Source: an uncultured bacterium (GTDB lineage: Bacteria > Zixibacteria > MSB-5A5 > UBA10806). Taken from it: a stretch of DNA of 64,000 bases. Each line of letters begins with the position of its first letter. Within the stretch, counting starts at the first letter, position 1. The DNA lies in contig CBEUCH010000009.1 in assembly GCA_965541585.1 (NCBI GenBank), positions 1 through 64,000 of the forward strand, written 5' to 3'. A program made the translations under genes and the position numbers. The notes beneath the pieces were generated by a model, which did not search any database, had not been told where the DNA came from, and saw only the letters and a list, made by a program, of their open reading frames with translations. This document shows, piece after piece, positions 45,526 to 47,303 of this stretch.

Positions 45526-45589
45526 CTTAAATTCGGACTTGACAAAAATATCAACTATTGCTAATAAAAGGTCTTCGGAGGATAATCTC

Positions 45590-46324
45590 TTGGGACCTTT
45601 GAAGGAAAAGACCGCATCATCAATTGGAGCGGATGAGTATTCCCGCCTCAGCGGGGAGTATTTCAACTCTCAGTATGCGGAGGAGGAGTTCTACTGGGGC
45701 GAGCAGCCGAATTTGCTGGTGCCGTTGGTAAGCAGCCACTTAGAGCCTGGCTCCCGGGTGCTTGTAATAGGCTGCGGAGAGGGGCGCGATGCGCTTTTTC
45801 TGGCGCGGTTCGGCTTCGACGTCATTGCTACAGATATCGCTTCTAATGGTCTCGAGAAGGCCGGACGCCTGGCCGAAGGAAATGGCTGCAAGCTTCAGCT
45901 TATAAATCTGGATGCCCACCGGTCGCATGACCATCTGGGCGTTTTCGACGGCCTTTTGTCTATGAATGTCATACAACTCTTGAATCCTGACATGATAACA
46001 GGGCGGTTAGCATACTTTCAATCGCGGGTTAGATCGGGTGGAATAGTCGCCATTCAAGTCTTTACCGTTGACGATCCCAATTACCAGGATTGGCTGAAAT
46101 CCGGAATTCCACCGAGAGGATCACTGACCTTTGAGCACCCGACGCGCGGGTATCCTATCAGATTTTTCGCAAAAGGAGAACTGGCATCTCATTTTGAAGG
46201 CTGGGAGTTTATTCATTATTACGAGGGCTTATTGTGGGATAAGCCTCACGGCATCCAGAGCGGTTTCCACCAGCATGGGTTTGCGCAGATCATCGCCAGG
46301 AAAAAATCGGATACCTGGTCATAG
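45590..46324 (+). CDS. Class I SAM-dependent methyltransferase (TehB-like)
   Basis: VIGCGEGRDALFLA, VIATD; His-rich C-terminus; start placed at TTG 45590 after GGAGG. Confidence 0.8.
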   Translation: MGPLKEKTASSIGADEYSRLSGEYFNSQYAEEEFYWGEQPNLLVPLVSSHLEPGSRVLVIGCGEGRDALFLARFGFDVIATDIASNGLEKAGRLAEGNGCKLQLINLDAHRSHDHLGVFDGLLSMNVIQLLNPDMITGRLAYFQSRVRSGGIVAIQVFTVDDPNYQDWLKSGIPPRGSLTFEHPTRGYPIRFFAKGELASHFEGWEFIHYYEGLLWDKPHGIQSGFHQHGFAQIIARKKSDTWS

Positions 46325-46448: not shown

Positions 46449-46775
46449 ATGTTTTTAAAGAGGCTTTTCGAACCATACAGGATTGAGATCGTCGAGGAAA
46501 GCAACCTCGGTTCCGGCCTGTCAAGGGCAGTCTATACTATTAAAGGTCTCCCATGCTTTATATGAGCCGGTTTGACCGGCTCCGGTCTGGAGCGGCAACC
46601 GGGAGTCAGGGAGGCCGAAATCTCTGATGATATGGCGGTTATTATCTTCGCTCCCGGAGAAACCAGTATCGATCGAATTTCTAATTATCTATCAAAATTC
46701 GGAGTCAAGGGAAAATTGAATATGACCTTGGAGCGCTTATATCGATTATTCCGGCCACATAAGAATCATAAATGA
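46449..46775 (+). CDS. HMA (CopZ/MerP-like) selenoprotein with CxxU motif, 108 aa, UGA at 46563-46565 read as Sec
   Basis: YTIKGLPCFI[UGA]AGLTGSGLERQPGVREAEIS...IDRISNYLSKFG fits the HMA pattern across the UGA; SECIS-like hairpin follows. Confidence 0.8.
46567..46602 (+). promoter_or_regulatory. Bacterial SECIS-like stem-loop
   Basis: CCGGU-U-UG-A-CC-G-GCUCC-(GGUCU)-GGAGC-GG-CA-ACCGG; G-starting apical loop 18 nt after the UGA. Confidence 0.7.
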
Positions 46776-46790
46776 AATCGTTTTATTAAA

Positions 46791-47303
46791 TTATTTTGCA
46801 GGTGTAAGTTTAATAATCGGCTGACCAGGCTTTACCAGATCGCCCGGCCCGAAGTGAATGGATTTCACCTCCCCGTCGGTGGGCGATTTTATTTCGTTTT
46901 CCATCTTCATCGATTCCACAATCACCAGAGATTGTTTAGCCCTGACTTTTTCCCCTTGCTTTACCAGTACCTTGACCACCTTGCCGGGCATCGGAGTGCT
47001 GATTTCGTCCCCGGACACAAACTCCACGGCGGCTCCGGCGAAACTGTTCCTGTCGTCTTTTACCTTATCCAGCTTCACCGCCCGGCCACCGATATGGACA
47101 TAAAGGCTACTCTCGGATTCCGCTATGTAGGCGATAATGTTTTTGCCGTTGAATAGAATCGAGAAGCAATTCGGCGAAACGAGGGTAGCATTAAATCGAT
47201 ATTCCTTTTCTCCGGATGAGAATATAAAGCTATCGTCCTTGCCTTCATCTGCCTGGAAATTGATAGTATGTATGTTCCCGTTATGCGAAAACTCGAATTC
47301 CAT
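46791..47303 (-). CDS. Biotin carboxyl carrier subunit of a split methylcrotonyl-CoA carboxylase alpha chain
   Basis: ESMKME motif; operon context. Confidence 0.88.
   Translation of the reverse strand: MEFEFSHNGNIHTINFQADEGKDDSFIFSSGEKEYRFNATLVSPNCFSILFNGKNIIAYIAESESSLYVHIGGRAVKLDKVKDDRNSFAGAAVEFVSGDEISTPMPGKVVKVLVKQGEKVRAKQSLVIVESMKMENEIKSPTDGEVKSIHFGPGDLVKPGQPIIKLTPAK

Follow-up and report, generated by a model that had tools for sequence, protein, structure and literature searches.

The window analysed here comprises 64,000 nucleotides (positions 1 to 64,000 of contig CBEUCH010000009.1, assembly GCA_965541585.1) from an uncultured bacterium of the phylum Zixibacteria. Its forward strand harbours a short frame that opens with ATG 46449, the first start codon downstream of an in-frame stop, and is immediately preceded by a purine-rich stretch. 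The frame is interrupted by a TGA at 46563–46565 and ends with a second TGA at 46773–46775. When the first TGA is read as selenocysteine (Sec, U), a protein of 108 amino acids is obtained, in which U39 lies in the context IKGLPCFIUAGLT. Open reading frame calling with table 11 reports only 46572–46775, equivalent to a 67-residue tail. A sequence-only reading of this DNA had pointed out both the in-frame ATG and the truncated call, and both observations are correct. The features of the locus are as follows, with the basis of each assignment in brackets.

45539..46324, forward strand: TehB-like class I SAM methyltransferase, upstream gene (family matches)
46449..46775, forward strand: read-through coding sequence of 108 amino acids for a putative HMA-fold protein with C36-x-x-U39, ending at the second TGA (frame, orthologues, dN/dS)
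46449..46514, forward strand: N-terminal extension, residues 1–22, predicted as a short helix and an extra beta strand (both AlphaFold models)
46515..46709, forward strand: predicted HMA core, residues 23–87, strand-helix-strand-strand-helix, matching the ATP7B, CsoZ and CopA metal-binding domains (profile, fold searches)
46554..46556, forward strand: TGC codon of Cys36, the first ligand position of CxxU, invariant in full-length members (alignment)
46563..46565, forward strand: in-frame TGA, presumed Sec39, aligned to the second Cys of the HMA GMxCxxC motif (alignment to CopA metal-binding domains)
46567..46602, forward strand: bSECIS-type stem-loop with apical loop GGUCU at 46584–46588, 18 nt from the UGA (folding, consensus criteria)
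46710..46772, forward strand: C-terminal basic amphipathic segment, residues 88–108, after the invariant G85-x-K87-G88 (alignment; models, helix 2 continued, at low confidence)
46791..47303, reverse strand: convergent biotin-carrier gene, the downstream bound of the locus (open reading frame list, family match)

A scan for promoters and terminators gave a chance-level result, with six found against 4.3 expected.

Full-length orthologues were retrieved by profile search from six of the 285 genomes of the phylum: G000, which is the genome of the window, G001, G002, G004, G049 and G078. All six scored E ≤ 2.2e-38 and the next match 5.2e-10; five of the six were themselves in the search profile. 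G001, G002, G004, G049 and G078 share 69, 69, 41, 29 and 30% identity, respectively, with the window protein. The TGA occupies the same column, after G-[LI]-P-C-x-x, in all six carrier genomes, and every one of them has a Cys codon at the first position of CxxU. In four pairs, dN/dS was 0.08–0.20 before the TGA and 0.10–0.36 after it, and these low values on both sides indicate that both halves are coding. Furthermore, contig X1, obtained in an independent run, spans the TGA codon with three differences, none of which falls at the TGA. The sequence-only reading had named the circumstance that would undo its proposal, namely that all close homologues carry Cys and the TGA is an error or a recent nonsense mutation. 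No close homologue with Cys was found and the objection has failed.

When the family profile was run against a protein database, five further clusters emerged, all belonging to the G049-like clade. Database proteins carry W at the Sec site in three cases and start after the site in three others, and one cluster contains a full-length form together with a form truncated after the stop. These W calls and late starts fit what would be expected if gene callers meet a TGA. By cutting the gene to a 67-residue fragment or reading the UGA as Trp, gene callers render the family invisible in databases. A single-sequence search with the window protein found no homologue at E ≤ 0.001. A library of 1.84 billion representatives at 50% gave 2638 matches at E ≤ 0.001. 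The best 150 of these are all multi-HMA proteins of at least 140 amino acids, the top single domain scores 45.8 bits as against 122–131 for family members, and none of the 150 contains G-x-P-C-x-x-C. No Cys orthologue appeared in the 285 genomes, in the protein database or among these best 150 matches; known family members are also missing from the best 150, so that clusters can be concealed by truncated representatives and the absence of a Cys orthologue is unproven. Longer fused forms were sought among 7993 candidates and did not appear at E ≤ 1e-6, which is weak evidence. When genome and metagenome collections were scanned for the sequence pattern, a single new contig (L056) and one chance match (L057) were all that was gained. 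Of the 24 methyltransferase loci searched, only the four already known have an HMA copy beside the methyltransferase; no diverged or Cys-containing one turned up.

The genome of the window (3.52 Mb, 98% complete) encodes the entire selenocysteine machinery. selA (459.9 bits), selB (341.6), selD (349) and tRNA-Sec (75.6 bits) all score above curated cut-offs, and ARAGORN reports a tRNA-SeC(tca). selD, selA and selB lie consecutively on contig C11, with tRNA-Sec close by, and selD has an in-frame TGA of its own. The sequence-only reading had suggested a search for selA, selB, selC and selD and had held that their absence from a complete genome would count against it; all four are present. Both selA and selB also occur in the five relatives that carry the HMA gene. 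TGA is the commonest stop of long open reading frames in this genome, ending 561 of 1582. Recoding is consequently site-specific and a reassignment of TGA to Trp, which was also considered, is ruled out. Known selenoprotein types with an in-frame TGA are found in the same genome: HdrA (CxxU), Rdx (CxxU) and DUF3179 (UxxC), as well as an OS_HP2-like gene just below its family cut-off and a TlpA-like redoxin gene. The earlier proposal that this organism recodes UGA is thus well founded. Across the phylum, selB exceeds its cut-off in 257 of the 285 genomes and in 188 of the 198 near-complete ones: Sec use is nearly universal in Zixibacteria and recoding is the rule. The literature searched for selenoproteins together with Zixibacteria contains nothing beyond mention of the phylum name.

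In bacteria, insertion of Sec depends on a hairpin just after the UGA, which is used by SelB. Folding of the RNA downstream of codon 39 gives a stem-loop at 46567–46602 with an upper stem of GCUCC (46579–83) and GGAGC (46589–93) enclosing the loop GGUCU (46584–88), a loop that presumably resembles that of Escherichia coli fdhF. Its stability is unexceptional over 50 nt from the UGA (z = −0.80) and more pronounced when the hairpin is trimmed to 36 nt (z = −2.41; 3 of 200 shuffles equally stable). A simple hairpin scorer finds an equally good hairpin at 14 of the 561 TGA stops of long open reading frames. Hairpins whose loop starts with GUC or GGUC follow 585 of 122,913 six-frame TGAs and only two of the 561 long-frame TGA stops, both of which are themselves CxxU candidates; this loop motif was picked after the query hairpin had been inspected. 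The HdrA, Rdx and DUF3179 genes of the same genome carry GUC/GGUC-loop hairpins like that of the HMA gene. The bSECIS criteria in the legend of Fig. 2 of PMC13188914 specify a loop of 3–9 nt, a stem of 4–16 bp, a G in the first two loop positions, a distance of 16–37 nt from the UGA and a minimum free energy ≤ −7.5 kcal/mol, and the query hairpin agrees with all of them. A hairpin with a G-led loop is present in all six orthologues, 18–23 nt from the UGA. In contrast to the E. coli fdhF-type bSECIS model, whose consensus on loop, stem, G, distance and free energy the query hairpin satisfies, the register is not fixed in the family: the loop lies 18–19 nt from the UGA in G000–G002 and 23 nt in G004, G049 and G078, a shift of 5 nt in three orthologues. 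The sequence-only reading had described a clear SECIS-like hairpin; the structure folds as described and agrees with the bacterial consensus, but it is not clear when taken alone. On its own, the hairpin is modest evidence for recoding.

Considered as a whole, the HMA gene almost certainly recodes TGA 39 as Sec, with SelB acting at the hairpin; the decisive evidence is the conservation of the TGA in six of six genomes, alongside which stand selection on both halves and the complete machinery. These genes almost certainly form a small, patchy and uncatalogued family of genuine hidden selenoproteins, judging from their sequences.

As to what the protein is, the window sequence matches nothing in Pfam at E ≤ 1. 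The family profile, on the other hand, matches structures of CopA, ATP7, CopZ and MerP, with U placed on the second Cys, exactly where the UGA had been located by the sequence-only reading. PF00403 (HMA) is matched by seven of 11 aligned sequences at E ≤ 0.1, and the G049 orthologue exceeds the cut-off of this family (36.7 against 24.8 bits). An AlphaFold model of the window protein, built with five sequences, has a pLDDT of 75.5. Residues 23–87 of the model superpose on the metal-binding domain of ATP7B with Z 8.8 and rmsd 1.7 over 65 aligned residues, and Z is 8.5 for CsoZ and 8.4 for CopA. The G049 protein, modelled independently (pLDDT 73.5), gave the same HMA result (Z 9.4). Foldseek returned no match at E ≤ 0.001, the best being the CopA metal-binding domain at 2.5e-3. 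In the model C36-x-x-U39 is positioned at the start of helix 37–48, in the loop that joins strand 1 to helix 1. A tree was built from 71 HMA cores (68 columns); in it the nine family rows fall on one side of a branch, with support of 100/99, against 62 CxxC domains, the outgroups being drawn from the same phylum only. The protein is predicted to contain an HMA core of the CopZ/MerP type. The earlier description of a stand-alone HMA-type domain is borne out by the family profile, the orthologues and the predicted fold, and the unusual GLPC variant and N-terminal extension have likewise proved to be family traits, the former conserved as G-[LI]-P-C. The G-L-x-C of the window protein presumably resembles that of sulfur carriers of the TusA/SirA type; no such family occurs among the Pfam matches or the best 50 rows of the fold search.

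The two ends of the protein depart from the usual HMA arrangement. Both models contain an extra strand at residues 11–20, and helix 2 extends to the C-terminus, with no last HMA strand. Five of the six HMA fold elements superpose, and a helix follows G85 in both models at pLDDT 56–70. As the C-terminal part of both has pLDDT 49–70, this rearrangement is a prediction. The C-terminal tail, preceded by an invariant G-x-K-G, is basic and amphipathic in all six proteins (net charge +3 to +5, hydrophobic moment 0.69–0.87), and the pI of the family is 9.3–9.9. This conserved basic helix had escaped the sequence-only reading; it is modelled, with low confidence, in the place usually taken by the last HMA strand. 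Over residues 10–101 this order of strands and helices is shared with RNA polymerase subunit L (Z 7.2 and 7.6), although similarity of this degree may reflect nothing beyond a common arrangement. Inspection of the sequence revealed no signal peptide.

HMA-fold selenoproteins as such have been catalogued before. Table 1 of PMC13188914 lists 119 selenoprotein families, which include NF041115 (UxxU, 'putative mercuric reductase'), a mercuric transport protein (C/SxxU) and a P1B ATPase (UxxC); NCBIfam also contains NF045683, MerT_CopZ_Se. NF041115 (UxxU_metal_bind) is the best NCBIfam match of the window protein and, like it, is of a small HMA type that stands alone and carries Sec in its metal-binding loop. 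All five aligned family members match this model weakly. However, the window protein attains 25.7 bits against a cut-off of 95 and is no member; the family has CxxU with a single Sec at the second position, whereas NF041115 has UxxU, and its proteins are 104–113 amino acids long with N- and C-terminal extensions, whereas the model has 74 positions. NF041115 is found above its cut-off in none of the 285 genomes of the phylum. NF045683 and PF02411 also concern heavy-metal transport selenoproteins, with the motif C/SxxU in PMC13188914, but are built on the membrane MerT domain; the genes studied here are bounded by in-frame stops at 104–113 amino acids, the window protein shows no match to MerT, and only one of five family members matches NF045683 (E 4.5e-4). 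The P1B ATPase selenoprotein (TIGR01525, UxxC) shares a heavy-metal-transport assignment and Sec in a CxxC-type motif, but is a large membrane ATPase with Sec in first place, as opposed to a free protein of 108 residues with Sec in second. The core superposes on the PF00403 proteins CopZ, CsoZ, Atx1 and MerP and on the metal-binding domains of CopA and ATP7 with rmsd 1.3–2.2 Å and Z 8.4–8.8, and the CxxC position is kept. In contrast to these proteins, the family replaces the second Cys by Sec and G-M-x-C by G-[LI]-P-C, has V, I or L for the Tyr or Phe that follows the loop-5 Gly of other HMA domains and a pI of 9.3–9.9, and is predicted to possess an additional N-terminal strand and, instead of the last strand, a long C-terminal helix. 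The family is not described in the literature searched: term searches of PMC9312934, PMC1976440, bioRxiv 2022.07.06.499078, PMC13326102, PMC8318568 and PMC12013277 disclosed no such family, while supplements, BSepDB, and Haft and Tolstoy 2025 lie outside this scope and could list it. No new principle is involved; what is added to the short list of HMA-fold selenoproteins is a single-Sec, stand-alone CxxU form. The role of selenium in heavy-metal-binding proteins is named as an open question in the 2026 review PMC13188914, and a 12 kDa protein with one Cys and one Sec offers a simple test bed for it.

The genomic surroundings differ between carriers. The methyltransferase lies directly upstream on the same strand in all four carriers that belong to genome family f1, with a gap of 124 nt in the window and approximately 25 nt in G004. 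Its best families are TehB and Methyltransf_25, at 59 bits against a TehB cut-off of 303. The enzyme has a conserved C-terminal DKPHG...HQHG motif, is present in 10 of 13 other genomes of f1 and sits in a region of acyl-CoA carboxylase and methylmalonyl-CoA mutase genes. The gene that follows on the same strand in G049 and G078 encodes an AhpC/TSA-ResA-like CxxC redoxin (L058:6896–7435, reverse strand, and L059:1030–1539, forward strand, respectively). In both genomes it ends in PAFK[AV]G-TGA-GSKNK, with a G-loop hairpin conserved past the stop, and is probably a C-terminal-Sec selenoprotein; it matches none of the NCBIfam selenoprotein families. The HMA gene itself is patchy, occurring in six of 285 genomes though selB is present in 257. 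Unlike CopZ/MerP systems, it is adjoined by no metal transporter, ATPase or MerR/CsoR-type regulator in any carrier. The metal systems of the genome of the window reside on other contigs, all with Cys motifs, and consist of CopA-like and CadA-like ATPases, a MerR-like/MerT-HMA locus and an HMA lipoprotein. Sequence inspection and HMA matches place a MerR-like regulator, a MerT-HMA fusion and an outer-membrane-like gene at C1:100226–103744 (reverse strand), the HMA lipoprotein followed by a similar outer-membrane-like gene at C4:104925–106159 (forward strand), and an ArsR-like regulator with the CadA-like ATPase at C27:12911–15703 (reverse strand).

The favoured reading of this gene, with a probability of roughly 0.55, is that a soft metal is bound between Cys36 and Sec39 and that the protein acts as a chaperone or buffer. 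It is preferred because Cu(I) and Hg(II) carriers have this fold and ligand position, and because selenolate is softer than thiolate as a ligand. The gene product is almost certainly a cytoplasmic selenoprotein of 108 amino acids with a predicted HMA core. From the established SelB mechanism, SelB-GTP-Sec-tRNA would bind the G-led apical loop 18 nt downstream and insert Sec at UGA39, and the UGA at codon 109 would terminate translation. The Cys36 thiolate and the Sec39 selenolate would then hold a soft metal ion, for instance Cu(I) or Hg(II), between them, and the protein would serve as a small metal chaperone or buffer, handing the metal to unlinked systems such as the CopA-like or CadA-like P1B ATPases or the MerR-like/MerT-HMA locus. 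Membrane tethering or self-association may be mediated by the predicted C-terminal helix, which is long, basic and amphipathic. The Cu/Hg-type chaperone proposed by the sequence-only reading is thus likely at best. Against it stand the motif, which is G-[LI]-P-C instead of GMxCxxC, the replacement of the loop-5 aromatic residue by V, I or L, the lack of any transporter, ATPase or metal regulator beside the gene, its patchy occurrence in the phylum, the low pLDDT of the C-terminal part and the thiol oxidoreductase neighbour in G049 and G078, which fits a redox role equally well.

That neighbour is also an argument for a different view of the same selenoprotein, a possibility held with considerably less confidence, in which an HMA scaffold would carry CxxU as a redox pair (selenylsulfide/thiol-selenol), with a TlpA-like redoxin restoring the reduced state. 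According to section 7 of PMC13188914, a redox function is assumed for most CxxU selenoproteins, and a structure of oxidised MerP exists (1osd). The redoxin, however, is not adjacent in the four f1 carriers, the genome of the window has no close copy of it (best 24–25% identity), and the predicted fold is that of HMA and not of thioredoxin. The upstream gene of the f1 carriers raises the rather improbable alternative that the protein is a Sec-based carrier of a metal or metalloid and supplies the TehB-like SAM methyltransferase, with methylation of Te, Se or of the Hg/As type. Its constant position on the same strand in four of four f1 carriers, the family matches and the methyltransferase-selenoprotein fusions catalogued in Table 1 of PMC13188914 would suit such a link, but the enzyme is far below the TehB cut-off, seven other f1 genomes keep it (53–64% identity) with no HMA gene beside it although all seven have selB, and G049 and G078 carry the HMA gene and show no match to the methyltransferase at E ≤ 1e-20.

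It is very improbable that no recoding takes place, be it because the TGA truly terminates translation, arose by nonsense mutation or reflects a sequencing error, leaving a pseudogene or two small frames, or because it is read as Trp or Cys. The unremarkable stability of the hairpin and the W found at the site in three database proteins are what such an explanation can draw upon; it is difficult to reconcile with a TGA that is identical in six genomes down to 29% protein identity, with purifying selection on both halves, with the complete Sec machinery and with the use of TGA as a normal stop genome-wide, including at the end of the HMA gene itself, while the 150 ordinary HMA matches listed for the phylum are free of internal stops. 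An extension of the metal reading, which is speculative and considered unlikely, would describe an obligately Sec-dependent and rearranged HMA family that has no Cys version, in which the N-terminal strand replaces the last strand and the long basic helix dimerises the protein or fixes it to the membrane, and which, together with a second selenoprotein, the redoxin, or a SAM methyltransferase, handles a soft metal or metalloid by a selenium-based route in sediment Zixibacteria. If this were true, the rearranged order would be beta-beta-alpha-beta-beta-alpha, as in RNA polymerase subunit L.

The genome of the window contains seven other likely selenoprotein genes, at C4:96079, C5:164083, C12:6061, C16:77900, C16:83801, C19:16072 and C8:14312, the last of which lies outside the scan. 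This set corresponds to HdrA, Rdx, DUF3179, the TlpA-like redoxin with a T9SS tail, the OS_HP2-like gene and two thioredoxin-like exported proteins. In addition, two genes for Ser/Thr kinase-TPR proteins of approximately 880 amino acids are found at C25:23911–26553 (reverse strand; L076) and C9:95927–98617 (forward strand; part in L081). G007 lacks the corresponding segment, and a relative in G026 has one TGA within the match. In both kinase-TPR genes of the genome of the window, an in-frame TGA completes a CxxU motif immediately ahead of the TPR end domain, and the GGUC-loop hairpins downstream of it are near-identical in the two genes.
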